Shown: in pieces, positions 4,507-48,400 of the stretch | Position numbering within the stretch: the first letter of the stretch is position 1 | How the letters are laid out: the number at the start of each line of letters is the position of its first letter | Assembly (NCBI GenBank): GCA_015062345.1 | Contig: SUUV01000001.1 | Location: forward strand, 21,588-85,587 | Source: Alphaproteobacteria bacterium | Lineage (GTDB): Bacteria > Pseudomonadota > Alphaproteobacteria > RF32 > CAG-239 | Length of the DNA: 64,000 nt | Direction: 5' to 3' | Program-made: the position numbers and the translations under genes | Notes under the pieces: generated by a model | Database searches by the model: none | Told to the model about the DNA's origin: nothing | Seen by the model: only the letters and a program-made list of their open reading frames with translations

Positions 4507-6285
4507 TTACATCAGCACCTTAAACGGCGGTATAATTGCATCAAAACGAAGTTTGTAAAGCATTTTTATATCATCTGCCCATTGTCCGAATTTTTCCGTC
4601 AACCGAACTGCCGGTAAACCGCCGCCACTTTCAATATATTTGGTAAGTTTTTCCTGAAAACTTTGTTTTCTGGGATAATAGTTGAGCAAAAATTTATCAC
4701 CTGAGCCGATTTTTGCCAAAGCTTTTGCTTTTAACAAAGCAACATCAACCCCGCCTAAAGCATCAACAAGCCCAAGCGAATATGCATCTTTACCGAGCCA
4801 CACTCTGCCTCTTGCCACCTGATTTATTTTTTGCAGGTCAAAGTTTCTGGCTTGCATTACTTTTGATGTAAAATCCTGATAGATTCTATCAAGCGATGCA
4901 TTAAATGCTCTCTTTTCATTTTCATCAAATTTGTGGTTTATACTTAAAAACGAAGCATTGTCGCCAAAACTGATTTCGCCCCAATTTATACCAAGTTTTT
5001 TCCACAGTTTTTCAAAAACTACTTTACCGCCCAAAACTCCGATTGAACCGGTTAATGTTGCCGGCTCAGCCACAATATAATCAGCAGCCGTTGCAATAAA
5101 ATATCCACCTGAAGCCGCATAATCGGACATGGAAACCACAATCGGAATTTGCTTTTCTTTTTTCAAATTTTCAAGCGCATATCTGATTTCGTCAGATGCG
5201 GTATAGCTTCCGCCGGGGGAATTTATCCTCAAAACCAAAGCTTTAAGATTTTCTTGTTTTTTTAAATCTTCAATTTGCGCTAAAACGCTGTTTGCACCCA
5301 CAACTGCCTCGTTTAACGGACTGTTTGAGCTTATTCCGTCATCAATCATACCGTCTAAGACCAGAAAAGCAACCAAAGGCAAGTCTTTTTGATTGAGCTC
5401 TTTTATTCCTGCCATATAGCTGTCAATATCTGCAAATTGTGCATTATATGTTGTTTTTAGATAATCATTTAAATCTTGCACATAACCGAATTTATCAATA
5501 AACCCAAGCTTAAAAGCTAAACTTGTCCACAATGGCGCTTTGTTAATGGCATTTTCAACATCTTTTTCCGCCAAATTTCGATTTTTTGCAATTCCCGTAA
5601 CCAGTTGATTGTAAAAACCATTTCCGACTTTGTTTAATTCTTGACGATATTCTTGGCTAAAATCAGAGCTTATCAGTGAGCTGACCGCTGTTTTATATTC
5701 ATAACGAGAATAAAATTCGGGTTCAACGCCAAATTTTTGCAAAATATTTTTAAAAAACGGCACTTCAATATTAACACCAGTAACCGCTATTTCGGCAGAC
5801 GGCTGAAGCCAAATTTGGTCAAAATGTGATGCCAGATAATATTCTTTACTGCCACCCATTGAACTTGAATATACATAAGCCTTTTTGCCTTTTGCTCTAA
5901 ATGTCTTAACCGCCGATGCAATATCCTGAATTTGCGCCAATCCCAGTGAAGAAACGCTGATATTGGCTTTTATGGCCTTAATTTTTTCATCATCGGCAGC
6001 AATATTTATGGCTCTTATCAAATCAAAAACCGAATGCGTTGAAGCTCCGGTAAATTCGGCAAAAAAGTCATCACTTCGGCTTTCGGTATAGTTTTTGTTA
6101 AAATCTATCTCCAAAATTGCACTATCGGGAACTCCGGCAATTTTTATTTTAGGGCTCATAATTGATAACACCCCGACCAAAATCAATATAAATAACACTC
6201 CAAAAATTGCAAAAGAATAAACAATGGTCTTAATTATCAGTTTTAAAGCCATTTTTTTTCTTTGTTCTTCTTCGTTTATTTTCAT
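4507..6285 (-). CDS. sppA: signal peptide peptidase SppA (protease IV, 67K type)
   Basis: 592 aa with an N-terminal TM helix and two ClpP/crotonase-like halves (GGSYTASDEI...; SMSDYAASGGYFIATAADYIVAEP). Confidence 0.8.
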   Translation of the reverse strand: MKINEEEQRKKMALKLIIKTIVYSFAIFGVLFILILVGVLSIMSPKIKIAGVPDSAILEIDFNKNYTESRSDDFFAEFTGASTHSVFDLIRAINIAADDEKIKAIKANISVSSLGLAQIQDIASAVKTFRAKGKKAYVYSSSMGGSKEYYLASHFDQIWLQPSAEIAVTGVNIEVPFFKNILQKFGVEPEFYSRYEYKTAVSSLISSDFSQEYRQELNKVGNGFYNQLVTGIAKNRNLAEKDVENAINKAPLWTSLAFKLGFIDKFGYVQDLNDYLKTTYNAQFADIDSYMAGIKELNQKDLPLVAFLVLDGMIDDGISSNSPLNEAVVGANSVLAQIEDLKKQENLKALVLRINSPGGSYTASDEIRYALENLKKEKQIPIVVSMSDYAASGGYFIATAADYIVAEPATLTGSIGVLGGKVVFEKLWKKLGINWGEISFGDNASFLSINHKFDENEKRAFNASLDRIYQDFTSKVMQARNFDLQKINQVARGRVWLGKDAYSLGLVDALGGVDVALLKAKALAKIGSGDKFLLNYYPRKQSFQEKLTKYIESGGGLPAVRLTEKFGQWADDIKMLYKLRFDAIIPPFKVLM

Positions 6286-6287
6286 AT

Positions 6288-7013
6288 TTATTCTCCGTTA
6301 TTTTCTTGTATTTTGAGCAGATTATCCACAAACTCGGGCAATGTAACCGAACATTTGCCTTCAATGTGCTCATCAAACAAATAATTATTTGAAGTGGTAG
6401 TTAAATTAAACTCTATGGTATCGGCACCATAATATTTTGCCGTATAAACAAAACCGGCGGCCGGATACACCACTCCAGATGTGCCGACCGAAACAAATAA
6501 ATCACATTCTCTTAAATGTTTTTCAACCTCATTCATATATAAAGGCATCTCCCCAAAAAACACAATATTGGGTTTAAATTTGCCTTTTGCGGCACAATGA
6601 GGGCATATTGTTGACATATCAACATCTTCTGCCGATTGCAAAATATGTCCGCATTCCAAACATATTGCTTCATCAATTTTTCCGTGAATGTGATATATGT
6701 TTTTGCTTGAGGCTTTTTCGTGCAAAATATCAACATTTTGTGTAATGATATTAACCTCACCTTTATATTGTTCTTGCAATTTTGCCAAACAAAGATGTGC
6801 CGGATTGGGCTTTGCATTTAAAACTTCGGGCTTTAGCTCGTTATAAAATTTATGAACAAAAGCCGGATTTTTTTCAAACGCCTCAACGGTTGCAACATCT
6901 TCCACTTTATGATTGTTCCATAAACCGTCAGAATCTCTAAAGGTCGAAAGGCCCGATTCGGCAGAAATTCCGGCACCGGTTAATATAAAAATGCGTTTAT
7001 ACTGTTTTTTCAT
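6288..7013 (-). CDS. cobB: NAD-dependent protein deacylase (Sir2/CobB family)
   Basis: Sirtuin motifs are present: GAGISAESGLSTFRD, a CxxC...CxxC zinc ribbon (CLECG, CPHCA) and HG. The start was moved to the internal Met MKKQYKRIFILTGAGIS, which has a GGAG RBS. Confidence 0.8.
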   Translation of the reverse strand: MKKQYKRIFILTGAGISAESGLSTFRDSDGLWNNHKVEDVATVEAFEKNPAFVHKFYNELKPEVLNAKPNPAHLCLAKLQEQYKGEVNIITQNVDILHEKASSKNIYHIHGKIDEAICLECGHILQSAEDVDMSTICPHCAAKGKFKPNIVFFGEMPLYMNEVEKHLRECDLFVSVGTSGVVYPAAGFVYTAKYYGADTIEFNLTTTSNNYLFDEHIEGKCSVTLPEFVDNLLKIQENNGE

Positions 7014-7258
7014 CACATACTCCATATATCTACAAAATAAAAGATTCTTTTTGATTGGCAAGAGTTTATAAACATATCCCCCAAAAAATATTTATCATCG
7101 GAACACAACTTCCAAATTGGTCTTGACACTAAACCAAAAATAAACTACAAATATAACTGAACAGTCAAGTTGGCTGTTTGGAACCTAACAATTCCTATGT
7201 AACGCGTCTTTTAGTATAGGGACGTTAAATTTTATACGCTGACCGGTTATTTAAAAAA

Positions 7259-7362
7259 TGACTGGAAGGCGGTAAAATAAGCCTTGCGGTCAATATACCG
7301 CGCTATTTCGTTATTGTAGTTGTTAGCTTCCAGTCGCTTTTTTGTTAAGAGCGATTTTTTTA
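7259..7362 (+). repeat. copy 1 of a conserved structured element of about 100 nt, bounded by 9-bp inverted repeats (gactggaag...cttccagtc) and followed by a short hairpin and a T-run
   Basis: About 80% identical to the reverse complement of 11712-11811. It lies 35-50 nt upstream of the downstream gene, in that gene's orientation. Confidence 0.6.
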
Positions 7363-7396
7363 TTTAAGTAACTTAATTAAAAAAAGGAAGATAATT

Positions 7397-8185
7397 ATGA
7401 AATATACAAATCAAAATGGTCGTTCAATTCTTGTCAAGTGTGATTTAGAAGCGCAGGCTTTTTTGAGTGCCGTGTATAAAAGCAATACACAAACGAAAAA
7501 AAGACAAGCTGATAAATTGCAATGCGGAAGAAGTATGGTAGAGATGCTTGGCGTGCTTGCTATTATCGGTGTTTTATCGGTAGGAGGTATTGCCGGCTAT
7601 TCAAAAGCCATGAACAAATTTAAAATCAACAAAACCACAGACCAGGTTTCCGTTCTTGTTGCAAATTTGCGTACGATGTTTGCAGCTCAAGGAAACTATA
7701 GTGGATTAACCGTTAAAACCGCAATAGATTTTGGTGTTGTCCCTGATGATATGATTACAACAAGCACAACCACAGGAGGGGAAGGCAATGAAACAACCAC
7801 CTCAACAACACTTAAAAATGCATTTGGCGGAGATGTTGAAATTGCAGTATCTCCGGTTAAAAATGGTGATACAGACAGCGCATTTTATGTTGCATATGAT
7901 GGTTTGTCACAAGAAGCATGTGTAACACTTGCAACCGGTGACTGGGGTTCCGGTCAAGCCTCCGGTTTAATAGCCATGATTGCAGCTCCTTCTTTAGCAA
8001 CTGCCAAAGCTGCTGCCGCAAACGCATATGCTAACGGTAATGGTGTGGCAGGCTCAGCTACTACGGCGGCAGTAGCTCAACCGGGTGGAAGTACCCTTAA
8101 AACCCCAATGCCTGTTGCAAATGCTGTAGCAAGTTGTACTGCTGCACAAAATGCCACTCCTGCAGTGCTTTGGAAATATTACTAA
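7397..8185 (+). CDS. type IV pilin-like protein (prepilin-type N-terminal cleavage/methylation motif)
   Basis: G|RSMVEMLGVLAIIGVLSVGGIAGY has Glu at +5 after the Gly and a hydrophobic N-terminal helix. A strong AGGAAG RBS precedes the ATG. The C-terminal region is rich in Ala, Gly and Thr. Confidence 0.6.
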   Translation: MKYTNQNGRSILVKCDLEAQAFLSAVYKSNTQTKKRQADKLQCGRSMVEMLGVLAIIGVLSVGGIAGYSKAMNKFKINKTTDQVSVLVANLRTMFAAQGNYSGLTVKTAIDFGVVPDDMITTSTTTGGEGNETTTSTTLKNAFGGDVEIAVSPVKNGDTDSAFYVAYDGLSQEACVTLATGDWGSGQASGLIAMIAAPSLATAKAAAANAYANGNGVAGSATTAAVAQPGGSTLKTPMPVANAVASCTAAQNATPAVLWKYY

Positions 8186-10143: not shown

Positions 10144-10267
10144 TATTTTTTCCTTATAAGAGTTAAAACATATGTCATATTTTTATCTGCTAAACAATCG
10201 CTTGTCAAGTTTTGAAAAACTCAATCAGTCTAAAAAAATATATGCTTTCTGTCTCGTAGGTTCGACC

Positions 10268-10321
10268 CCTTAAGCCCGACCTGACATACCAACAAAAAAA
10301 GCCCACCCGAAAGGGTGAGCT
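10268..10321. repeat. partial third copy of the tRNA-Leu-associated repeat; only the terminator module cccgacctgacataccaacaaaaaaagcccacccgaaagggtgagc is present
   Basis: A 46-nt exact match to the 3' end of both 210-bp repeat units at 12188-12233 and 12398-12443. The hairpin gcccaccc/gggtgagc with an upstream A-run acts as a terminator for the minus-strand lipoprotein operon. Confidence 0.7.
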
Positions 10322-10340
10322 TAAGATAAATTTAGAAAAG

Positions 10341-10757
10341 TCATTCAACTTCATGCGCTTCTAAAAATAAAGATTGTCCCAAAGCATTAAAGAAATTCTG
10401 ATATGGTATAGGATTATCCAAAGCTTTTAATCCAACTTGCCCATTAGCTCTTACAACAATTTGTTTATCATTAATAGCTCTTATTGAAACAGTTAATTTA
10501 GAAGCATGAATGTGACTAAATGATGTTCCGCTTATTGTGCCTAATTTTTCATCAGCTCTTTCAATTATAAAACCTAAATCTTGCATTGTAGAAATTACGG
10601 CCCTTAGCACTAATGATTTATCATTTGTATCAAATGACCGTGATTGATAATTTCGCATTTGTACTTGAGATTGAGATGTCCCTAAAACATCATTATGAGT
10701 TGATGCACAACCATTTAAAGCAATGATGATTATTAAAGATGATAAAATTTTTTTCAT
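10341..10757 (-). CDS. lipoprotein, paralog family A
   Basis: Lipobox LNGC in MKKILSSLIIIIALNGCAST. It shares LQDLGF...EKLG...SG and a C-terminal FF..L.QS.FL with the next gene. Confidence 0.6.
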   Translation of the reverse strand: MKKILSSLIIIIALNGCASTHNDVLGTSQSQVQMRNYQSRSFDTNDKSLVLRAVISTMQDLGFIIERADEKLGTISGTSFSHIHASKLTVSIRAINDKQIVVRANGQVGLKALDNPIPYQNFFNALGQSLFLEAHEVE

Positions 10758-10765
10758 TTTTACTC

Positions 10766-11284
10766 CTATATATTGTTAGCAGTTAAAAATACAGATTGGC
10801 TTAATTTATCAAAGAAATCTTTATAAATTTGTTCATCTTGTATTTTTTCTATTCTTGCTTGATTCATATTATTCCAAATAACGCGAGCAAATTCCACCCT
10901 TATGTTATAGCTCTGATTATCATGATTTTTTGTAGAAACGAGTGTTACATAAATTTTTTGTGAAACATCATAAACAGGTTGAGTACCAAATAAGACGGCT
11001 AAGAGAATTACACCTACTTTTTGTCCCGCAGAACCGGCCTCTCTATCTTTATTTGCTGTTATTAGTCCAAGTTTTGTTTCACTTTCATCTAAAGTAAAAC
11101 CTAAATCTTGTAAAACTTGAGCGGACGCAATCAATAATGTTTCTTCGTCATTAGTTTCATATCTTCTTGTTTCTAATTGTCTTCTAGCTAAATATTGCTC
11201 ATCTAATTTGTAATAGTGGTCATAAGAAACACATCCGGAAACAATAAAAGATATCATTGAAAATAAGATAAAAATCTTTTTCAT
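10766..11284 (-). CDS. lipoprotein, paralog family A
   Basis: Start moved to MKKIFILFSMISFIVSGC (AAGGAG RBS). It is a paralog of 10341-10757. Confidence 0.6.
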   Translation of the reverse strand: MKKIFILFSMISFIVSGCVSYDHYYKLDEQYLARRQLETRRYETNDEETLLIASAQVLQDLGFTLDESETKLGLITANKDREAGSAGQKVGVILLAVLFGTQPVYDVSQKIYVTLVSTKNHDNQSYNIRVEFARVIWNNMNQARIEKIQDEQIYKDFFDKLSQSVFLTANNI

Positions 11285-11294
11285 ATCACACTCC

Positions 11295-11690
11295 TTAGAA
11301 AGTAGATGTTCTGTAAGCAAAATCTCGAACTAAACCATTTTTATCGAATTTAACAATTATAGTCAGAGTTCTCTGGTTAGAAGATGCCTTAAAATCATGA
11401 CTTCCTGCTGCAAATAAAAGTAACCATACGCCGCTTTGAGAGGATGAAGATTGAACATTGGTAGAAACTTTGTCATAAACCCAAGTTTCTCTATGTTCTG
11501 TATCTGTTGTAACCATATTAGGAGAGCCTAAAACTTCAACAACAGCAGAAGATGGCATACCTATCTTAATTTCGGTTTGAGCCTTTGCAACTGTCATTTT
11601 TTCTTCATTTAAGCTATAATCAGTTGTTGAGCAAGAAGATAAAAATGGTATTGTTACAATAGCTAAAGTTAATAGAATATTTTTTTTCAT
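11295..11690 (-). CDS. lipoprotein
   Basis: Start moved to MKKNILLTLAIVTIPFLSSC (lipobox LSSC, GAGGT RBS). It is the first gene of a three-gene lipoprotein operon. Confidence 0.55.
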   Translation of the reverse strand: MKKNILLTLAIVTIPFLSSCSTTDYSLNEEKMTVAKAQTEIKIGMPSSAVVEVLGSPNMVTTDTEHRETWVYDKVSTNVQSSSSQSGVWLLLFAAGSHDFKASSNQRTLTIIVKFDKNGLVRDFAYRTSTF

Positions 11691-11711
11691 AAGTACCTCG
11701 CAATAACTAAG

Positions 11712-11811
11712 TTGTCGCTTTGATGAAAAGCGACTGGAAGTTGAGAACAATACCACTAGTTATTGTGCGATATATTGACTTTGAAAGTTTATTTTATCGC
11801 CTTCCAGTCAT
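11712..11811 (-). repeat. copy 2 of the inverted-repeat-bounded structured element, in minus orientation
   Basis: Its reverse complement, tgactggaaggcgataaaataa...cttccagtcgcttttcatcaaagcgac, aligns with 7259-7362. It is followed (in gene sense) by a perfect 8-bp hairpin gtcgcttt/aaagcgac and lies 22 nt upstream of the lipoprotein ATG. Confidence 0.6.
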
Positions 11812-12020
11812 AAAACCGGTAGGCGAAAATATCGTCTTTTCGCATAGACGCTAGTGGATATTAGGTTCTCACACCTAAATCAGGCCATCAATCCTGACAC
11901 TCACATAATATATAGTTTATGGAAAGAAATCAAGAATTTTTATTTTATTCATATGGTATTGTTGTTAATAATGCTTTTAACTTGTTGGCGTTGATATAAT
12001 TACTTTTGAAATAAATAATT

Positions 12021-12446
12021 TTATTGGTGCGCTATGTTTGAAAAAAAAGTATTTTTTTCAAGGCCGGAATGGCTTCGCAATATTATTGCTTCGCCGACCT
12101 TGTTCGCTCGGGCATTCCGCCCGACCGGCGTATATATCCGCCTGCGAACTGCGGTTCAAACCGGCACCGTGCCGCTTCTCACCCGACCTGACATACCAAC
12201 AAAAAAAGCCCACCCGAAAGGGTGAGCTTTTTTTATTGGTGCGCTATATTTGAAAAAAAGTATTTTTTCAAGGCCGGAATGGCTTCGCAATATTATTGCT
12301 TCGCCGACCTTGTTCGCTCGGGCATTCTGCCCGACCGGCGTATATATCCGCCTGCGAACTGCGGTTCAAACCGGCACCGTGCCGCTTCTCACCCGACCTA
12401 ACATACCAACAAAAAAAGCCCACCCGAAAGGGTGAGCTTTTTTTAT
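12021..12446. repeat. two tandem 210-212-bp GC-rich repeat units, each starting with a copy of the tRNA-Leu 3' end (ttattggtgcgcta) and ending with the tRNA terminator hairpin
   Basis: 12021-12232 and 12233-12442 are nearly identical, differing by a few SNPs and one A. They are about 55-60% GC against a background of about 33%. The 61-71-aa ORFs inside them are almost certainly spurious. Confidence 0.85.
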
Positions 12447-12533
12447 TGGTGCGCTAGGCCGGAATCGAACCGGCACGGGATTGCTCCCAACAGATTTTAA
12501 GTCTGCAGCGTCTACCTGTTCCGCCACAAGCGC
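12447..12533 (-). tRNA. tRNA-Leu (anticodon UAA), encoded CCA
   Basis: The reverse complement folds as a cloverleaf. The acceptor stem GCGCTTG/CTAGCGC has one mismatch. The anticodon stem is GCAGA/TCTGT with loop CUUAAAA, giving anticodon UAA. There is a long variable arm GGGAGCAATCCC. The T-arm is GCCGG-TTCGATT-CCGGC, and the 3' end is ACCA. Confidence 0.8.
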
Positions 12534-21944: not shown

Positions 21945-22295
21945 CGGAAAATATTTGTTTTTTATTCTCAAACTTTGCAACATACCTCCTAACTGTCACT
22001 CCGGCACTTGATGCTGAAGTCCGCCTCCTAACTGTCACTCCGGCACTTGATGCCGGAGTCCAGGTGGTAATATAGCTTTAGTTATTCCCTTAGATACCGG
22101 TGTCTATTCCAAGCTAAAGCTTGGGCACCGGTATGAAAGTAAAGGAGGCAACACCTCTACCTCATTTTTGATTTAAATTCACAATTAGACTCTTTTTACT
22201 TGCAAAAAAAAAAAACGGTTTATGATGCGTATTGAGGGGTAATTTTTACACCTTTCAAGTACATTTAAACTTAATTTTTGTAAAGGATTAAAATT
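21945..22295 (+). promoter_or_regulatory. conserved upstream module, copy A, ahead of an SCPU pilin paralog
   Basis: About 350 bp shared with 36756-37045 (reverse complement) and 47648-47956, and in its proximal part with 38781-38920. It contains the hairpin ctccggca-cttga-tgccggag (tandemly duplicated as 32-bp units in this copy), a gataccggtgtc core, a palindrome ccaagctaaagcttgg, and then TTACTTGCA-A12-CGGTT-TATGAT before the ATG. Confidence 0.75.
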
Positions 22296-22757
22296 ATGAG
22301 AAAATATTTTCTAATATCCGCTGTTGCCCTCTTGGCTGCAACATCTGCAAATGCAACCACCGATTACGCTGAAGTAACAGCTCGTGCTACCATTGAAGTG
22401 GCAACTACTATGGACTGTACAGATGTAGACTTTGGTACAATCGTTGTTAAGCAAAACAATGCCGCATCTACAGTAACTATGGATGCTGATATGGGAAAAG
22501 TATATGGAGATGGTGATATTTTATCTATAGATTCCGATGAAACATTCTTCTCTTGTAACAATGGCGATGGTATGCCTATCACCGGAATATATTTATCTTT
22601 TCCTTCATCGATAGTCCTTAGTAATGGTAATGGCGGAGAAATGACTGTTGGTTTTTCAACAAACGGAGCAGAAAGTATCGATGCTGTGCTACATATCCCT
22701 GCTAAAGTTCAGTCAGGTGATTATACAGAAACATTTACCGTAACTTACACATACTAA
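22296..22757 (+). CDS. spore-coat-protein-U (SCPU)/Csu-type fimbrial major subunit, paralog 1
   Basis: Signal peptide MRKYFLISAVALLAATSANA, a DFGTIVV motif, and a C-terminal G-Y-T-x-T-F-T-V-T-Y-T-Y beta-strand typical of SCPU/archaic chaperone-usher pilins. Confidence 0.7.
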   Translation: MRKYFLISAVALLAATSANATTDYAEVTARATIEVATTMDCTDVDFGTIVVKQNNAASTVTMDADMGKVYGDGDILSIDSDETFFSCNNGDGMPITGIYLSFPSSIVLSNGNGGEMTVGFSTNGAESIDAVLHIPAKVQSGDYTETFTVTYTY

Positions 22758-26994: not shown

Positions 26995-27190
26995 AGATTT
27001 CCATTTAATGCTCTTTGGAGGTTGTATAATTTCTTACCCTATCTGTCATTGTGGTAACATCTTCATTTGCATCTCTGTCATAAAACACATCTATCGCCTT
27101 TGAAATTTTAGTTTCAGGCAATTTATACGCATCGGGATAGATTCCTTTTAACGCACGATATTTATATCCGAATTTCCTTTGCAGATTATG
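26995..27190 (-). pseudogene. orphan internal fragment of the 320-aa gene (codons about 15-75; no start)
   Basis: About 90% DNA identity to 30040-30235. It translates as ...HNLQRKFGYKYRALKGIYPDAYKLPETKISKAIDVFYDRDANEDVTTMTDRVRNYTTSKEH* and abuts the 3' end of the 166-aa secreted-protein gene. Confidence 0.6.
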
Positions 27191-27195
27191 GTAAG

Positions 27196-27696
27196 TTACA
27201 TATTAAAACGATTATCCCAATCATTTAAATTTTTTATTTTCTTAAAATCAATCTGTTTTTCTTCGTCAGACATATCTTCAATTTCGTATTTAACGGTATC
27301 AATAAGTTGCCGTATAACATTTTTGGCATTATCAACTGCTAAAGCAGAAGCCGTAACCTTACGAATTGAGCCATAAAAATACTGTCCGAAATCACTATTT
27401 GTATTTATTGCATATTGAATATCAATCGATGAATATATAAAAGTTTTTAAGGCTTTTTTTGTTTCTTCTGATTTGTTGTAATAAAACTCATCTATAATTT
27501 CATATCCGACATTTAACAAACAGTTTATAGTCCCGTCACTTACTTGTATAATTTCTTCATCGTTTATACTATCGTTAGTATTATAAAATTCTAAGCATTG
27601 GCGATATTCTTTATCAAAATTTTCTATTTGTTCAAATTTTGTTTGAGCGTTGGCATTCATAGATACAAAAATTAAAAAAAATAAAATATATCGCAT
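27196..27696 (-). CDS. secreted hypothetical protein
   Basis: Signal peptide MRYILFFLIFVSMNANA and an AAAGGAAAAG RBS. It is embedded between two fragments of the 320-aa gene. Confidence 0.5.
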   Translation of the reverse strand: MRYILFFLIFVSMNANAQTKFEQIENFDKEYRQCLEFYNTNDSINDEEIIQVSDGTINCLLNVGYEIIDEFYYNKSEETKKALKTFIYSSIDIQYAINTNSDFGQYFYGSIRKVTASALAVDNAKNVIRQLIDTVKYEIEDMSDEEKQIDFKKIKNLNDWDNRFNM

Positions 27697-27856
27697 TGGC
27701 TTTTCCTTTCAATTATTCGCCAGTATAATAATTTTTATATTTTTGTAAATATTCATTTTTTTTATTTAAATATAATTTATCAAATTCATTACTATCACTA
27801 TAGTAGTTTTTTCTTCTATTATACCAACCATTGATATGGTTTATATTTTGATGATT

Positions 27857-28060
27857 TCGGTCAACTTATACGCATCGGGATAGATTCCTTTTAACGCACG
27901 ATATTTATATCCGAATTTCCTTTCTAAATTATGGTCATTTTCATCAATAAATGTTCCCATATATGTCTCATATTGCCACAATTAAAATGTCTTATTTTGT
28001 CTTACGATGTACGAAAATGTCCGAAAAATTTAACGAATTTACAATCTTAAATGTTTTTTA
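27857..28060 (-). pseudogene. orphan copy of the promoter region plus the first 38 or so codons of the 320-aa gene
   Basis: Matches 30130-30400, including the upstream aaaatgtccga repeat region. It translates as (M)GTFIDENDHNLERKFGYKYRALKGIYPDAYKLTEIIKI*. The original ATG-CCA is changed to TGG-CAA. Confidence 0.55.
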
Positions 28061-28096
28061 ATGACCATAAAAAGCACCTTATCACTCGTTAAATAT

Positions 28097-28303
28097 TCAA
28101 AAATATCTAAAGATGATATTAAAAAATATAGAAAAAACATACCACAATATCAGTAACAACAGAATAATAAGAGGTGTGTACATTAGTATACAAAACAACG
28201 ATGATAATTTTGTGATATATTCCACAATTTTTAATGCTTTTTTGTTTTCACAAAAAGCATTAAATTTTTCTGACAGTTTATTTATTCCATCTGTTATTTT
28301 CAT
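28097..28303 (-). CDS. small membrane protein, hypothetical
   Basis: 68 aa with a single TM helix (LFCILMYTPLIILLLLILWYVFSIFF). Low confidence. Confidence 0.25.
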   Translation of the reverse strand: MKITDGINKLSEKFNAFCENKKALKIVEYITKLSSLFCILMYTPLIILLLLILWYVFSIFFNIIFRYF

Positions 28304-28481
28304 AATCTAAACCCTCAAGCCACACTCTACAATTTTTATCCGGATTATTCAAGCCATAATTAAGCCCTTCAAAATTGTTTTTCATATCTTTATAACTATC
28401 AGATAGACTTACTGCCCAAGGGGTATTTCCTTTTATTGATTTTATGACCACACCATATTCATCAAAACAAATATAATGCAA
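28278..28481 (-). CDS. small hypothetical protein
   Basis: 67-aa ORF in the mosaic locus. Low confidence. Confidence 0.25.
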   Translation of the reverse strand: MHYICFDEYGVVIKSIKGNTPWAVSLSDSYKDMKNNFEGLNYGLNNPDKNCRVWLEGLDYENNRWNK

Positions 28482-28550
28482 AACATCACTAGATTAAACA
28501 AAAAAATCCATTTAATAAAAGTCCATTGAGGATTACTTTTTAATCCTAAT

Positions 28551-28739
28551 TTACCATAATTTTTTGAAATATCTTTGTACCAATTCATCACAATCACCTT
28601 CTGGATATTTAATCCCTAAGAATTCTCCCGTTAAGTTTGCATCCATATCTTCATAAGATGCTAACGGTGTATTTGCTCCTGATTTTACATCATGATATTC
28701 TTTAAGTCCAGATAAATTTTCAGCCCATAATGAACTCAT
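28551..28739 (-). CDS. small hypothetical protein
   Basis: 62-aa ORF in the mosaic locus. Low confidence. Confidence 0.25.
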   Translation of the reverse strand: MSSLWAENLSGLKEYHDVKSGANTPLASYEDMDANLTGEFLGIKYPEGDCDELVQRYFKKLW

Positions 28740-28885
28740 TAAACCTCTTTGAGCATTAACGCAATTTATATATGCATGTTTATATTTATCTGATAATCCT
28801 TTTGTATAACGATAATCAATAAAATCTTTTGCAATTGGGAAAGGTGCTAATAATGGAGTCAGACTTCCTTTTCTTGCTAGTTTTT

Positions 28886-29098
28886 TTAATCTTCTTGTGT
28901 CATATTACCCTCTTGCTTAATTGCTTTTTGTAAATTAGGATACATTTCATTATTCCCAACTTGTGCAAAACCCGATGGCGCTTTGATTGTGACGGAAGAA
29001 TAACTTTCCTGCGGTTTTGGTTTCGGAGCCTCCCCAAAATATTTAGCTTTCCACTCTTGGTCTTTGGAGGTTGTATAATTTCTTACCCTTAAAGTCAT
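28886..29098 (-). CDS. orphan module: a conserved mid-segment of the 320-aa gene (from its internal Met65) fused to a different 45-aa C-terminus
   Basis: MTLRVRNYTTSKDQEWKAKYFGEAPK aligns with TMTDRVRNYTSSKDQEWKAKYFGESPK of the full-length gene and then diverges. DNA homology covers 28985-29063. Confidence 0.35.
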   Translation of the reverse strand: MTLRVRNYTTSKDQEWKAKYFGEAPKPKPQESYSSVTIKAPSGFAQVGNNEMYPNLQKAIKQEGNMTQED

Positions 29099-29283
29099 GG
29101 TAAATTTTTATTTTCTCGCAACCGTTTTATATTTATAGTTCTATTCCTATTGACTTTTAGCAAAATTATATTATACAATCCAGCTGAGATTATTGAAGTG
29201 CAGAAAGGCCAGCTGCCACCATATATTATATATATGTATTAATGATGACGGATAGATCGCCGCCCGTCCAATAATCTCGTTGT

Positions 29284-30246
29284 TTATATTTTGTTTCTAT
29301 ACATACTTTTGATAACAGTTTGTCCGTTTACCGGATTTTGTGATATATAACCATAATCTGCTGTATATGTTCTTGGATAAACTACTTGCTGTATGTGTGG
29401 ATGTTTGCTTTCTGTAACCATATTAGGCCCCTCGTGGAATAATCTTTTTGCCATTTCAACCAGTTGTTCCGGTGTATAACCTTCATTCAAGCGTTTATGG
29501 TACAACTTTTTAACTACATTAGCAGGTATATATGCATTTTTATTTAACAATGGTAAATTTCCATTTTCACGCAAGCAATTAACATTTCTCATTGTACCGG
29601 GGTGAACTTTACCAAAATTTACATCTTGAAAATTATTTCCTTGTCTTAATTGATTTTTTAATTCATTTCTGCCTCTATATCTTGTATATTCGGTTATTGC
29701 TTTATCAATGCCTTTAACTCCTTTATATAAGCCATATCCGCTTGTTAAAGCCTCTGCTCCATACTGAGCAATCGCTCCTCCGATTTGTGCCGGAATAGTT
29801 GTCCCATCATTATATTGTTTCATATTCAAGTAATCAGTTTCATTTACTCCGATACCTGTCTTTTCTTTTAACCAATCATATACTCCTAATGTACCTCCCG
29901 ATAATGCCTTATCAACACCATAAACCATATCGGCCACATTCTCTGACATATAATCGCCAAAGCCTTTTTTTGTTTTATGAATTTTTGGACTTTCCCCAAA
30001 ATATTTAGCTTTCCACTCTTGGTCTTTGGAGGATGTATAATTTCTTACCCTATCTGTCATTGTGGTAACATCCTCATCGGCATCTCCGTCATAAAATACA
30101 TCTATCGCCTTTGAAACTTCCGTTTCGGGCAATTTATACGCATCAGGATAGATTCCTTTTAACGCACGATATTTATATCCGAATTTCCTTTGTAAATTAT
30201 GGTCATTTTCATCAATAAATGTTCCCATATATGTCTCATATGGCAT
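29284..30246 (-). CDS. hypothetical 320-aa protein; the intact copy of the mosaic-locus gene
   Basis: No signal peptide. N-terminal segments of about 100 aa are duplicated three times downstream. The C-terminal roughly 200 aa are unique. Confidence 0.6.
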   Translation of the reverse strand: MPYETYMGTFIDENDHNLQRKFGYKYRALKGIYPDAYKLPETEVSKAIDVFYDGDADEDVTTMTDRVRNYTSSKDQEWKAKYFGESPKIHKTKKGFGDYMSENVADMVYGVDKALSGGTLGVYDWLKEKTGIGVNETDYLNMKQYNDGTTIPAQIGGAIAQYGAEALTSGYGLYKGVKGIDKAITEYTRYRGRNELKNQLRQGNNFQDVNFGKVHPGTMRNVNCLRENGNLPLLNKNAYIPANVVKKLYHKRLNEGYTPEQLVEMAKRLFHEGPNMVTESKHPHIQQVVYPRTYTADYGYISQNPVNGQTVIKSMYRNKI

Positions 30247-30300
30247 TTTTCTTTCCTTTCATAAAATTAAAGTTAATGTAATAATATTCATATATCACAA

Positions 30301-30380
30301 TAAATCACAATTTGCCACAATTAAAATGTCCGATTTTGTACGAAAATGTCCGAAAATGTCTTACGATGTCCGATTTTACA
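30301..30380. promoter_or_regulatory. array of direct repeats (aaaatgtccga, equivalent to TCGGACATTTT on the gene strand), three or four copies upstream of the 320-aa gene
   Basis: Sequence is aaaatgtccgatttt-gtacg-aaaatgtccgaaaatgtc-ttacgatgtccgatttt. It is partly duplicated at 27976-28030. Confidence 0.45.
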
Positions 30381-38688: not shown

Positions 38689-38780
38689 TCCTTTTTAACC
38701 TATACAAAAAAGGATAATCAATTATTTTAAAAAAGACAGAGAATTTTCCAAATTATCCTATCATAAATATTTTACTTTCT

Positions 38781-38920
38781 TTACCTCATTTTTGATTTAA
38801 ATTCTTTAAACGACTCTTTTTACTTGCAAAAAAAAAAAACGGTTTATGATGCGACATGAGAGGTAAATTTTTGCACCTTTCAAATGTACTTAAACTTAAT
38901 TTTTGTAAAGGAATTAAAAA
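38781..38920 (+). promoter_or_regulatory. conserved upstream module, copy C (proximal 140 bp only); A12 tract at 38828-38839
   Basis: cctcatttttgatttaaat...ctttttacttgc-A12-cggtttatgatgcg...; the distal hairpin region is absent. Confidence 0.7.
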
Positions 38921-39367
38921 ATGAGAAAATATTTTCTTTTGAGCGCAGTTGCACTCTTGGCAACAACCACCGCCAATGCAACCACAGACTATGCCGAAGT
39001 AACAGCTCGTGCAGAAATTCAAGTGGCTAATGAATCTGCTTGTGATGATATAGATTTTGGCACTATTGTTGTTAAGGACGGAAACGAAGCTTTTACTATC
39101 GGATTTTCAGGAATAACCGGTGACGGAGAATCTGATGTTATATCCGTTGGCGAATATACTAAGTATATTCATTGCACAAATATGGGAGATTCTGCAAATA
39201 TCGATGAAGAGACAATAATACTAAAAAATAAAACCGGTGATGAAATGTCATTACGTCTTATGGGTGGCATTCCTAGTGATGAAGAATTTGCTGTTTATCT
39301 TGATGTTCCGAACAATGTTCATTCGGGTGAGTATACCGCTTCATTTACAATTGCTATAACCTATTAA
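38921..39367 (+). CDS. SCPU/Csu-type fimbrial major subunit, paralog 3
   Basis: MRKYFLLSAVALLATTTANA signal peptide, a DFGTIVV motif, and a C-terminal GEYTASFTIAITY. Confidence 0.7.
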   Translation: MRKYFLLSAVALLATTTANATTDYAEVTARAEIQVANESACDDIDFGTIVVKDGNEAFTIGFSGITGDGESDVISVGEYTKYIHCTNMGDSANIDEETIILKNKTGDEMSLRLMGGIPSDEEFAVYLDVPNNVHSGEYTASFTIAITY

Positions 39368-47647: not shown

Positions 47648-47956
47648 AAAATATTTGTTTTTTCTCCTCATACTTTGCAACATACCTCCTCACTGTCACT
47701 CCGGCACTTGATGCCGGAGTCCAGGTTAAATTATATAGCTAAATTATTCCCTGGATACCGGTGTCTATTCCAAGCTAAAGCTTGTGCACCGATATGACCG
47801 TGATGAGAGACAACACTTCTACCTCATTTTTGATTTAAATCTTTTAAACGACTCTTTTTACTTGCAAAAAAAAAAACGGTTTATGATGCGTATTGAAAGG
47901 TAAATTTTTGTACCTTTCAAATTAAGTTAAACTATTTTTGTAAAGGAATTTTAAAA
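47648..47956 (+). promoter_or_regulatory. conserved upstream module, copy D; A11 tract at 47866-47876
   Basis: Aligns along its full length with copy A and with the reverse complement of copy B. It starts right after the nth terminator. Confidence 0.75.
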
Positions 47957-48400
47957 ATGAGAAAATATTTTCTTTTGAGCGCTGTTGCCCTCTTGGCTGC
48001 AACATCTGCAAATGCCGGAACTGATTATGCCGAAGTAACTGCTAAGGCTACAATTCAAGTAGCAAGTAAATTTACTTGTTCTGATTTAGATTTTGGTACA
48101 CTTGTTTTTAAACAAGGTAATGAGGCTTTTAATTACGGTATAGATGGATATTTTTCAGCAACCAATACACATAAAGACTTGATTTCTGCAAGCGGAATAA
48201 GTTTTAGTTGCGAAATGCCGAAAAATCCACAAGTTGAAGTTGCTGATATAACCTTAAAAAATGAAAATTCTGATGAACTCACTCTTAATTTGATGTTAGG
48301 AATGACCAATGAATTTTACTATGAGCCACAACTTAAAATCCCTGCCAATGTTCAACCGGGTACATATACGGGAACATTTACCATTACAATTGTAAATTAA
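47957..48400 (+). CDS. SCPU/Csu-type fimbrial major subunit, paralog 4
   Basis: MRKYFLLSAVALLAATSANA signal peptide, a DFGTLVF motif, and a C-terminal GTYTGTFTITIVN. Confidence 0.7.
   Translation: MRKYFLLSAVALLAATSANAGTDYAEVTAKATIQVASKFTCSDLDFGTLVFKQGNEAFNYGIDGYFSATNTHKDLISASGISFSCEMPKNPQVEVADITLKNENSDELTLNLMLGMTNEFYYEPQLKIPANVQPGTYTGTFTITIVN

Follow-up and report, generated by a model that had tools for sequence, protein, structure and literature searches.

tRNA genes are the classic landing sites of phages and genomic islands, and the tRNA fragments left over from such events are usually treated as inert scars. About half of the known islands use the T-loop/T-stem region as the start of the identity block, and the sublocations of integration within tRNA genes were reportedly sorted into classes by Williams in 2002. 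In the Alphaproteobacteria the CcsR or 'cuckoo' RNAs are tandem sRNA genes, each with its own terminator, while Lalaouna et al. are said to have described the 3'ETS-leuZ sponge in 2015. In the signature used by Islander an intact tDNA is followed by a displaced fragment of its own 3' part that keeps its orientation, and the criteria also ask for an integrase between tDNA and fragment and a length of 2–200 kb (PMC4383910). The E. coli RNA 3'ETS-leuZ, cited in PMC6191717, derives from the trailer of tRNA-Leu(UAA) and functions as a sponge for sRNAs.

The locus described here lies in a window of 64 kb (the whole stretch of DNA analysed), in which tRNA-Leu(UAA) is followed by tandem repeats that each comprise one intrinsic terminator hairpin and a GC-rich segment of 176–178 nt, termed the unit. 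Like the tDNA islands (PMC4383910), the locus has an intact tRNA, direct copies of its 3' end, an identity block that starts in the T-loop/T-stem, hypervariable downstream DNA, integrases and phage att sites at the same tRNA in relatives and, in one relative (L017), a cassette bracketed by the tRNA-end core. In contrast to these islands, however, there is no integrase between tRNA and fragment, the interval is only 150–190 bp long, it is conserved with compensatory changes rather than decaying, and the tRNA-like block of the window is split by two structured insertions. The resemblance to 3'ETS-leuZ is that a non-tRNA functional RNA, putative in the case of the unit, lies 3' of tRNA-Leu(UAA) and is tied to a terminator. 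The E. coli RNA, however, is short and precedes its terminator, whereas the unit comes after the terminator, is highly structured and about three times as long, and the two share no sequence similarity; a sponge function for the unit would be pure conjecture. The locus may also be likened to the CcsR RNAs, since tandem structured units with a terminator after each occur here in Alphaproteobacteria, but the units lack CCUCCUCCC loops and an Rfam match, are more commonly single copy and contain tRNA fragments. Folded recombination sites such as integron attC similarly hold their structure while the sequence drifts, display a strand preference and occupy cassette boundaries in an array. The attC fold, however, is a single imperfect hairpin, whereas that of the unit is multi-branched; no IntI gene was seen, and identity with attC was rejected because the R''/R' core motifs (RYYYAAC / GTTRRRY) were absent by inspection.

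Anatomy of the tRNA-Leu(UAA) locus

The features of the locus, listed in the direction of the tRNA, are as follows.

12447..12533, minus strand: tRNA-Leu(UAA) with encoded CCA (ARAGORN; Rfam tRNA, 55.1 bits)
12405..12450, minus strand: terminator copy 1, directly 3' of the tRNA (inverted-repeat and terminator scans; -32.4 kcal/mol)
12235..12410, minus strand: unit copy 2, adjoining the tRNA (176 nt, 51% GC; 175.8 bits with model R1)
12195..12240, minus strand: terminator copy 2, between the two units (inverted repeat with 21-nt arms, 90% complementary)
12023..12200, minus strand: unit copy 1, distal (178 nt, 97% identical to copy 2; 169.5 bits with R1)
11694..11935, minus strand: promoter-like site TTGATT-17-TATTAT (11933->11905) and structured 5' leader of ~210 nt
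11295..11693, minus strand: BamE-like lipoprotein gene (Pfam BamE, E=1.7e-6)
10766..11284, minus strand: lipoprotein gene, 172 aa, paralogue of the 138-aa gene (no Pfam family)
10341..10757, minus strand: lipoprotein gene, 138 aa (no Pfam family)
10275..10322, minus strand: terminator copy 3 with the first 19 nt of the unit (GUUGGUAUGUCAGGUCGGG), closing the lipoprotein operon

As tRNA-Leu(UAA) is encoded on the minus strand (12533->12447), the repeats are located downstream of it. There are two, with a period of 210–212 nt, equal to terminator plus unit, and 97% identity (alignment blocks 12043–12246/12253–12456 and 12019–12056/12231–12268). The first-pass annotation had described such repeats, each with the tRNA 3' end, and we find in each copy TAGCGCACCAAT, which is that end plus 2 nt of trailer; exact copies in direct orientation lie at 12023, 12235 and 12445 (three, against 0.31 expected by chance). 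The T-arm-like fragments and high GC content that it had also reported are equally real: GTGCCGGTTTGAAC in the units corresponds to the T-stem 5' strand and the beginning of the T-loop, ATTCCGGCC to the last part of the T-loop and the T-stem 3' strand, and GC is 0.53–0.63 within the units versus ~0.25–0.40 in their surroundings. The tRNA-like pieces of the units most likely derive from the last 19 nt of tRNA-Leu (AUUCCGGCCUAGCGCACCA). Unit copy 2 contains P2 (CGGCA-CGG-UGCCG), the P3 three-way domain (GUUCGC/GCGAAC around GGCG/CGCC and UCGGG/CCCGA), P4 (GGUCGG/CCGGCC; extended at its tip) and an A/U hairpin, and closes at its 3' end with UAGCGCACCAAU; in copy 1 the same 3' end is followed by AAAA and then by the lipoprotein-operon region. 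The two-copy arrangement is 100% identical in contigs of three metagenome samples, and three contigs (L009, L094, L095) end inside the repeat.

The terminator hairpin, AAAGCCCACCCGAAAGGGTGAGCTT, occurs three times against none expected. Copy 1 is a single unbroken hairpin of ~21 bp with the layout ACCAAU + A7 + GCUCACCC / GGGUGGGC + U7 + GUUGGU, in which the ACCAAU that belongs to the tRNA pairs with the first nucleotides of the unit; it has the GC-rich hairpin and following U-run of an intrinsic terminator. Between lineages the hairpin cores covary and the ACCAAU/AUUGGU extension is retained. The terminator had been thought to work in both directions, and an A-run and a T-run do flank the hairpin on either side; a U-G wobble on the tRNA-sense strand, however, becomes a C-A mismatch on the opposite strand, so that the terminator is predicted to be better in the tRNA direction than in reverse. 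The partial copy reported 2 kb away as 46 nt at 10268–10321 is an exact copy but comprises 48 nt at 10275–10322 (48/48 identical to 12182–12229). At the corresponding position L021 and L010 have the terminator alone.

Between the copies lies the lipoprotein operon, of which the annotation had rightly said that it contains three lipoprotein-like genes, two of them paralogous: the 172-aa and 138-aa products are distant paralogues (21% identity, E=5e-11). The leader at 11694..11935, which corresponds to copy 2 of an inverted-repeat-bounded element recorded earlier, is kept in L010 and L021 and has a paralogue 4 kb away (~7210–7396, plus strand) upstream of a pilin-like gene. It had been suggested that this triplet may be the cargo of tandem integrations. 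The segment of ~1.7 kb is not bounded by tRNA fragments, however: the repeats that bracket it are copies of the terminator, its far end has neither integrase nor tRNA fragment, and its 5' leader is the one with the nearby paralogue. By Pfam, none of the lipoprotein genes between the copies is an integrase, and a role for them as integration cargo is not demonstrable.

Conservation and fold of the unit

The comparison with related genomes that had been proposed at the outset was informative. The tRNA itself is identical (86/86) in L021, L010, L017, L012, L007 and L014, and the unit directly follows tRNA-Leu and its terminator in six other lineages (L021, L010/L011, L017, L015/L016, L020 and L094/L095), all low-GC ruminant-gut Alphaproteobacteria represented by MAGs or contigs. 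It is single in four of these and tandem in two (L020, L094/95), which brings the known tandem arrays to three lineages, the window included. In most lineages a terminator lies after the unit; it is intrinsic and unrelated in L015/16, L017 and L089 and a terminator copy in the window and L094/95. Unit size ranges from ~133 to 178 nt, and model R1 returned 132–182 bits for the sequences from which it was built and 51.8 bits for L020; the host L089 has only a strongly diverged version without an R1 score. L012 has only a truncated unit and L007/L008, L014 and L024 (the last with the tRNA retained) have none, so that the unit is dispensable, while L023, L025 and L013, relatives identified through apt, lack synteny at the tRNA and are uninformative. 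Between lineages, identity of the unit is 79–84%, compared with ~74% for the adjacent apt coding sequence. Such syntenic conservation across lineages is a feature of structured non-coding RNAs.

The unit occurs at one locus in the 64-kb window and at one per genome in the genome collection. In a scan of 185,579 species genomes its 21-mer core was found once per genome in five Alphaproteobacteria MAGs; the other two of seven matches (L018, L019) were chance occurrences in GC-rich coding DNA, as was the single match in the metagenome scan, in a GC-rich contig. Model R1 had no match elsewhere in the window or in 60 viral loci. The single locus rules out a REP/BIME, a MITE or an IS200/IS605-derived palindromic element. 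The unit is not strain-specific, but an ancestral single-locus feature of an uncultured clade of low-GC gut Alphaproteobacteria.

Unit copy 2 with its upstream terminator has a predicted folding energy of -93.9 kcal/mol (z=-6.75), compared with -74.7 for the antisense strand. In a shallow alignment of eight sequences from some four to five lineages, 98.9% of cells were paired in the RNAalifold consensus, versus 27–40% with slid partners. In L010/L017, P3 changes from GUUCGC/GCGAAC to GCACAC/GUGUGC, which amounts to three double changes, and in L015/L016 P3b changes from CGGG/CCCG to CAAA/UUUG, with three double changes in alignment A2 and two after realignment (A3). These compensatory changes represent two independent events and affect two of the seven helices; the other five never vary, with P1, P2 and P4 invariant across the alignment, although a G28->C substitution in L094 gives P2 one more pair. 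The hairpin tips differ by insertions of 16 and ~27 nt and, in L020, by an A/U stem, while the invariant G-U and U-G pairs are all on the tRNA-sense strand. The predicted fold of the unit is thus conserved, as judged from two helices with compensatory pairs, variable tips and strand-biased G-U pairs, and the structured RNA that the first-pass annotation had offered as its alternative gains support. It should be emphasized, however, that the minimal version in L016 folds no better than shuffled sequence (z=-1.1), and that recombination with the tRNA, or repeated integration, rather than selection on an RNA could be what maintains the conserved tRNA-like ends. By inspection, TGGTATGAT resembles an extended -10 element, a weak one in the window itself (TATGTT / TATGTC); the unit sits immediately behind a strong intrinsic terminator.

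The Rfam scan that had also been proposed did not place the unit in a described family. With Rfam 15 at gathering and at permissive thresholds (window and L016) the tRNA alone passed, and the best non-tRNA matches were terminator look-alikes below 55% of threshold. Nor does the unit appear to be a tRNA-like RNA: ARAGORN and the Rfam tRNA and tmRNA models were silent in the units, which contain no 5' strand complementary to UAGCGC, and in the consensus fold the pieces of the T-stem belong to different helices. Neither a cloverleaf or long-range pairing of the T-stem strands (GCCGG with CCGGC) nor a GCGG/CCGC helix gained support from base changes, all of their columns being invariant; G28->C in L094 favours the local P2 hairpin over GCGG/CCGC. 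The likeness of GUCAGGUCGGGUGAGAAGCGGC to SRP RNA domain IV is restricted to the window lineage, with no Rfam SRP match. A protein-coding reading was discarded, as there is no conservation of ORFs and indels whose lengths are not multiples of three rule out a conserved reading frame. Retrons, IS110 bridge RNAs and IscB/TnpB guide RNAs were dismissed because the unit has no neighbouring gene for a reverse transcriptase or recombinase.

The tRNA 3' end as an integration hotspot

That this locus may be an integration hotspot, as first suggested, is borne out by its relatives. In L014 a 510-aa tyrosine integrase directly follows tRNA-Leu, and five IMG/VR phage contigs have a 3' fragment of tRNA-Leu(UAA) at their att site; these phages, however, cross over in the anticodon loop and not at the 3' end copied by the unit. 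The DNA downstream of the unit is completely different between close relatives. L010 and L017 are 99% identical up to the GCGCACCA at the end of the unit, then diverge and rejoin, a difference that concerns the downstream cassette and not the unit: in L017 copies of GCGCACCA flank a 1.5-kb cassette, one at the unit end and one at the far end of the cassette, and this 8-mer has no other occurrence in ~100 kb of related loci. The tRNA-Leu 3' end is thus a real hotspot of integration and recombination, and it is the unit, not the tRNA, that borders the variable region.

Judged by the Islander criteria, the locus has the tDNA and a 3' fragment in the same orientation (22 nt in L016, CATTCCGGCCTAGCGCACCAAT), but no gene, and hence no integrase, in the 150–190 bp between them, and a repeat period of 210 bp. 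A Pfam scan of the nine ORFs of at least 200 aa at 22.8–40.7 kb of the window also revealed no integrase. The unit had no BLAST match among 50,697 phage and 72,556 plasmid records, and two unit cores were absent from 2.9 million viral contigs; the 60 loci returned by a 15-mer viral scan were all rejected by model R1 as chance.

Origin and possible roles of the unit

The explanation we favour, at roughly even chances, is that an old scar of the tRNA 3' end has been turned into a conserved structured element, probably a non-coding RNA, that was duplicated here by recombination among repeated copies of the tRNA end and terminator. The 210-nt repeat comprises the intrinsic terminator of tRNA-Leu(UAA) and the GC-rich unit, the latter built around three pieces of the 3' part of the tRNA. 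One is the T-stem 5' strand plus the T-loop start, the second the T-loop end plus the T-stem 3' strand, and the third the CCA-bearing 3' strand of the acceptor. Assembly around these pieces makes it most likely that the unit began as a tRNA 3' fragment displaced or duplicated by site-specific recombination. The scar would later have been retained as a folded element with a P2 hairpin, a P3/P3a/P3b three-way domain and a variable-tip P4 hairpin, and in P2 and P4 the tRNA-derived strand is predicted to pair with a new local partner. We infer a small structured RNA made in the direction of the tRNA, transcribed either through read-through past the tRNA terminator or from an extended -10 of its own, formed by the invariant 5' terminus of the unit, and finishing at the next terminator. 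The 3' end of the unit would provide a second integrase core, GCGCACCA, 170–210 bp downstream of the real tRNA, at which accessory cassettes would join the chromosome instead of inside the tRNA. A single duplication of terminator plus unit in this strain was presumably brought about by recombination between two TAGCGCACCAATAAAA copies, that of the tRNA end and that of the unit end, and gene conversion may keep the terminator copies of the locus identical. This duplication is a simpler account than the two integrations proposed earlier for the tandem repeat, and a single copy is the more usual state in relatives.

At this locus a scar-like copy of a tRNA end sits in an element that is structurally conserved across lineages and able to amplify in tandem. 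Transcribed, it would represent an uncatalogued RNA family of an uncultured gut clade, while acting as DNA it would be a structured secondary attachment site; either way an integration scar would have been turned to use, although the narrow clade makes the practical value modest. A more ambitious proposal, which we regard as improbable, is that the unit represents a hitherto undescribed class of structured RNAs, or of folded DNA sites, that derive from a tRNA and offer factors specific for the tRNA-Leu(UAA) 3' end a decoy or a landing pad. Additional T-arm and acceptor-end copies, presented just behind the real tRNA gene, could capture integrases specific for the tRNA end or tRNA-targeting nucleases of neighbouring accumulated defence genes; the essential single-copy tRNA would stay intact, cassettes would still be acquired, and copy number would be tunable by tandem amplification.

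It could be argued that the unit plays no part as an RNA and is a remnant at the level of DNA: either what one or more integrative elements left behind after entry at the tRNA-Leu 3' end, namely an island arm with the displaced tRNA fragment, or itself a tiny non-autonomous cassette open to repeated insertion by a tRNA-Leu-targeting integrase; tandem copies would then be successive site-specific events and the hairpins protein-binding or single-strand DNA recombination structures. We consider this possible, though rather doubtful. An intact tRNA followed after ~150 bp by a direct copy of its last 19–22 nt is the signature described for islands (PMC4383910), and the T-loop/T-stem start of the identity block, the GCGCACCA-flanked cassette of L017, the L014 integrase and phage att fragments at this tRNA, the tandem arrays in three lineages, the strong terminator ahead of the unit and its loss from some relatives are all consistent with such an origin. 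The interval between tRNA and fragment, however, contains neither an integrase nor any other gene and is far under island size, the unit core is missing from viral, phage and plasmid collections, and the phages seen at this tRNA cross over in its anticodon loop. In addition, a neutral scar would be expected to have decayed where apt identity is 74%, whereas the unit displays two nested stems with paired substitutions and G-U pairs confined to one strand.

A mere local duplication of the tRNA terminator region, with the GC-rich sequence a lineage-specific accident lacking conservation or function, would explain why the copies are adjacent and 97% identical, why the period equals terminator plus unit and why the arrangement is identical in three samples. 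This is very unlikely, as the unit outdoes the apt coding sequence in conservation and carries compensatory changes, and relatives in which apt is only ~74% identical have a single unit at the same position, which indicates that the unit pre-dates the duplication. It is just as hard to credit that the functional strand is the antisense (plus) one, encoding an sRNA or small protein that extends from a promoter-like site through unit copy 1 to the hairpin at 12205–12238. That strand has a TTGATA-17-AATAAT / TGATATAAT site at 11991–12019 (10/12 matches), a hairpin T-run, a 63-aa ORF placed by the gene caller and a good fold (z=-5.2). The closest relative, L021, however, has a deletion of the promoter region, which is also missing in L015/16 and L017, the ATG of the ORF is missing in L010, indels of 16, 5, 3 and 2 nt break any frame, and all the conserved G-U pairs become C-A mismatches.

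Anatomy and distribution of the repeated unit

The tandem GC-rich repeats that the first-pass annotation had described at tRNA-Leu(UAA) are borne out with minor coordinate corrections: repeat statistics lie far above chance expectation, the GC content of the units is 0.53-0.63 against ~0.3-0.4 in the flanks, and contigs of three metagenome samples carry exactly the same arrangement. As the tRNA is on the minus strand, all the features described there fall downstream of it. In the tRNA direction their order is:

12533->12447, minus strand: tRNA-Leu(UAA)
12405-12450: terminator hairpin of 19-21 bp, including tRNA and unit bases; homologous positions in L009, L010, L012, L015-L017, L020, L021, L089 and L094 (related loci and contigs)
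12410->12235, tRNA direction: unit 2, between two identical terminator copies
12200->12023, tRNA direction: unit 1, after the second terminator
beyond unit 1, ahead of the lipoprotein genes: promoter-like site and structured leader, ~210 nt
next: three lipoprotein genes, BamE-like first, then two distant paralogues
10322->10275, past the lipoprotein genes: third terminator copy and the first 19 nt of a unit

On the tRNA-sense strand the unit reads GUUGGUAUG(leader)-GAAGCGGCACG-GUGCCGGUUUGAA-(~70-90 nt of GC-rich hairpins)-AUUCCGGCC-(25-nt A/U hairpin)-UAGCGCACCAAU, and its three tRNA-like pieces together make up the tRNA from the T-stem 5' strand through CCA. This tRNA-like block has two interruptions in the window units and only one in those of L015/L016, which thus finish with CATTCCGGCCTAGCGCACCAAT, where the last 19-22 nt of the tRNA are copied exactly. 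The repeat period equals terminator plus unit, and the 16-nt TAGCGCACCAATAAAA is present at both the tRNA end and the unit end. Were these copies to recombine unequally, by a homologous or an integrase-mediated route, exactly the tandem product seen would result.

The window is a JGI metagenome contig, which the neighbouring apt gene assigns to uncultured low-GC Alphaproteobacteria of animal guts. Scanning a genome collection with the 21-nt core of the unit identified five MAGs of Alphaproteobacteria, from sources that include sheep colon, roe deer colon and reindeer, with one match per genome; two further matches, in GC-rich genomes, were dismissed as chance. When loci reached via apt relatives are included, a single unit directly follows tRNA-Leu and terminator in L021, L010/L011, L017 and L015/L016. 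At the same position L020 carries two copies and a truncated third, while L094/L095 carry a unit, the terminator again and the opening of a further unit before the contigs run out; these arrays show tandem duplication to be recurrent. Only the first 65 nt of the unit remain in L012, and L007/L008, L014 and L024 have the tRNA without the unit. A model built from the unit copies (R1) found no further copy in the window and 60 viral loci, and searches of phage collections, plasmid collections and Rfam, the last proposed in the first-pass annotation, gave no match to the unit.

Accessory DNA at the tRNA-Leu locus

The suggestion that tRNA-Leu is an integration hotspot is upheld by several features of related loci. 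In L014 a 510-aa tyrosine integrase, whose N-terminus is shared with phage contig L087, immediately follows the tRNA. A tRNA-Leu(UAA) fragment beginning in the anticodon loop is present in five IMG/VR contigs, and in L090 the tRNA is regenerated with a variable arm that is foreign. In the IMG/VR contig L089 the phage end is followed in turn by the displaced host tRNA part, the host terminator and a unit-like element that is strongly diverged and has a terminator of its own, which places the unit on the host side rather than with these phages. The prophage end of L089 (1542-6305), adjoining the displaced tRNA fragment, encodes integrase, endolysin and a reverse transcriptase (PHROG 1423) that is possibly part of a diversity-generating retroelement.

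DNA beyond the unit is unrelated between relatives: the window, L021 and L010 have the lipoprotein operon there, L017 a gene for a NERD nuclease and L015 one for a PD-Lambda-5-like defence protein. L010 and L017 are 99% identical as far as the unit-terminal GCGCACCA, diverge over 1.2 and 1.5 kb, respectively, and rejoin at 100% identity inside the next terminator. The 1.5-kb L017 cassette (+266 to +1760 from the tRNA start when oriented; ~6121-7620 in the original coordinates), with genes for a NERD/Zn-ribbon nuclease and a small lipoprotein, stands in place of the lipoprotein operon of the near-identical L010 and is bracketed by GCGCACCA, the second copy at its far end preceding an A-run and hairpin. 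Neither strand of ~100 kb of related loci contains any other copy of this 8-mer (expectation 0.004 per kb). Together these observations suggest that the tRNA-end core at the unit 3' end behaves as a recombination site. Directly past the unit of L015 (5664-5950, minus strand, when oriented) the sequence CCAATTTGGAGA ... GC(G/A)TCGGTTCG occurs twice in tandem, where alignability of L015 with L016 ends and with the defence gene further along; this may be another att-like scar.

Conserved fold of the unit and its terminator

Identity of the unit between lineages is 79-84%, compared with ~74% for the apt coding sequence of the same lineages. In the RNAalifold consensus, which comprises seven helices, 98.9% of cells are paired, a share that falls to 27-40% on sliding the 3' partners; the alignment is shallow, and P1, P2 and P4 are invariant throughout. 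The nested helices P3 and P3b contain paired substitutions, each in a different lineage: GUUCGC/GCGAAC to GCACAC/GUGUGC in L010/L017 (P3), and CGGG/CCCG to CAAA/UUUG in L015/L016 (P3b). As L094, a close relative of L010, retains the window-type P3, the triple change arose on a short branch; G28 to C in L094 extends P2 by one pair. Hairpin tips vary by clean insertions, such as a 16-nt extension of the P4 tip in the window and L021 and an A/U stem at the same place in L020, and four lineages have an additional A/U hairpin. The minimum-energy structure of the L010 unit is the consensus fold (z=-2.95); the minimal L016 version does not exceed shuffled sequence in stability. The tRNA-sense strand carries several invariant G-U pairs as well as the terminator-stem U-G, which would be mismatches on the opposite strand.

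The preferred reading of the unit is an old scar of the tRNA 3' end turned into a folded element that is conserved and confined to a single locus. It is probably transcribed as an RNA in the tRNA direction, and its tRNA-like 3' end would also serve as the joining site of accessory DNA. The main rival, a purely DNA-level element arm or cassette, accounts for the repeats and the hotspot equally well. It leaves the compensatory changes and the strand-specific wobble pairs unexplained, however, as well as the fact that no phage, viral-contig or plasmid collection searched contains the unit. The nearest known system is the displaced tDNA fragments of genomic islands (PMC4383910), from which this locus departs in having no integrase and in falling short of island size; its likeness to the 3'ETS-leuZ trailer RNA is positional only.

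In all unit-bearing lineages a single uninterrupted hairpin of 19-21 bp is built from the tRNA's ACCAAU, an A-run, a GC hairpin, a U-run and AUUGGU, the first bases of the unit. Its core varies between lineages (gctcaccc, actcacc, gtcctc, gagaggc, taccaccc) while the ACCAAU/AUUGGU extension is retained, a trailer change in L015/L016 being matched on the other arm; the extension is missing in lineages without the unit. Alternatively, AUUGGU can pair, as P1, with the ACCAAU that lies at the 3' end of the same unit. Possible roles of the stem are RNase III-type processing, switching with P1, or a palindrome at the DNA level. By inspection, the invariant TTGGTATGAT reads as an extended -10 (TGnTATGAT), which would give the unit a putative promoter behind the terminator; the candidate hexamer is weaker in the window (TATGTT/TATGTC). 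All terminator copies in a given genome have the loop changes of their lineage in common (TTTCGGG in the window, TTGTGG in L021/L010), which indicates gene conversion between them.

The lipoprotein segment and its leader

The idea that the lipoprotein triplet is integration cargo finds no support: the segment is bordered by the unit's ACCAATAAAA and a terminator copy rather than tRNA fragments, contains no integrase, has host-like composition, and its leader has a paralogue in the window. Immediately beyond the third terminator copy (10255-10275), GGGGTCGAACCTACGAG resembles, by inspection, a degenerate T-arm of another tRNA. The two leaders are:

11694-11935, minus strand: 5' leader of the BamE-like lipoprotein operon
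~7210-7396, plus strand: paralogue upstream of a pilin-like gene

Their common core, ACCGGUU..AUGACUGGAAGGCG(A/G)UAAAAUAA..GUCAAUAUA(U/C)CGC..CUUCCAGUCGCUUUU, contains a 9-bp long-range pairing with a U-run behind it, giving it an attenuator-like look, and one stem changes from GAUA/UAUC to GGUA/UACC. The leader, which matches no Rfam family and is conserved in L010 and L021, is a candidate for a cis-regulatory RNA acting on envelope genes. L010 (4423-4839) has one lipoprotein gene where the window (10341-11284) has two paralogues, its product resembling the 172-aa protein at the N-terminus and the 138-aa protein at the C-terminus, which suggests fusion, deletion or duplication through recombination between paralogues.

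Elsewhere in the window, a ~330-nt repeat is present in three dispersed copies that are 70-87% identical (22155-22477, 38779-39102 and 47817-48138), and a direct-repeat cluster at 27009-30360 has reiterated AAAATGTC motifs around an unannotated 320-aa ORF.
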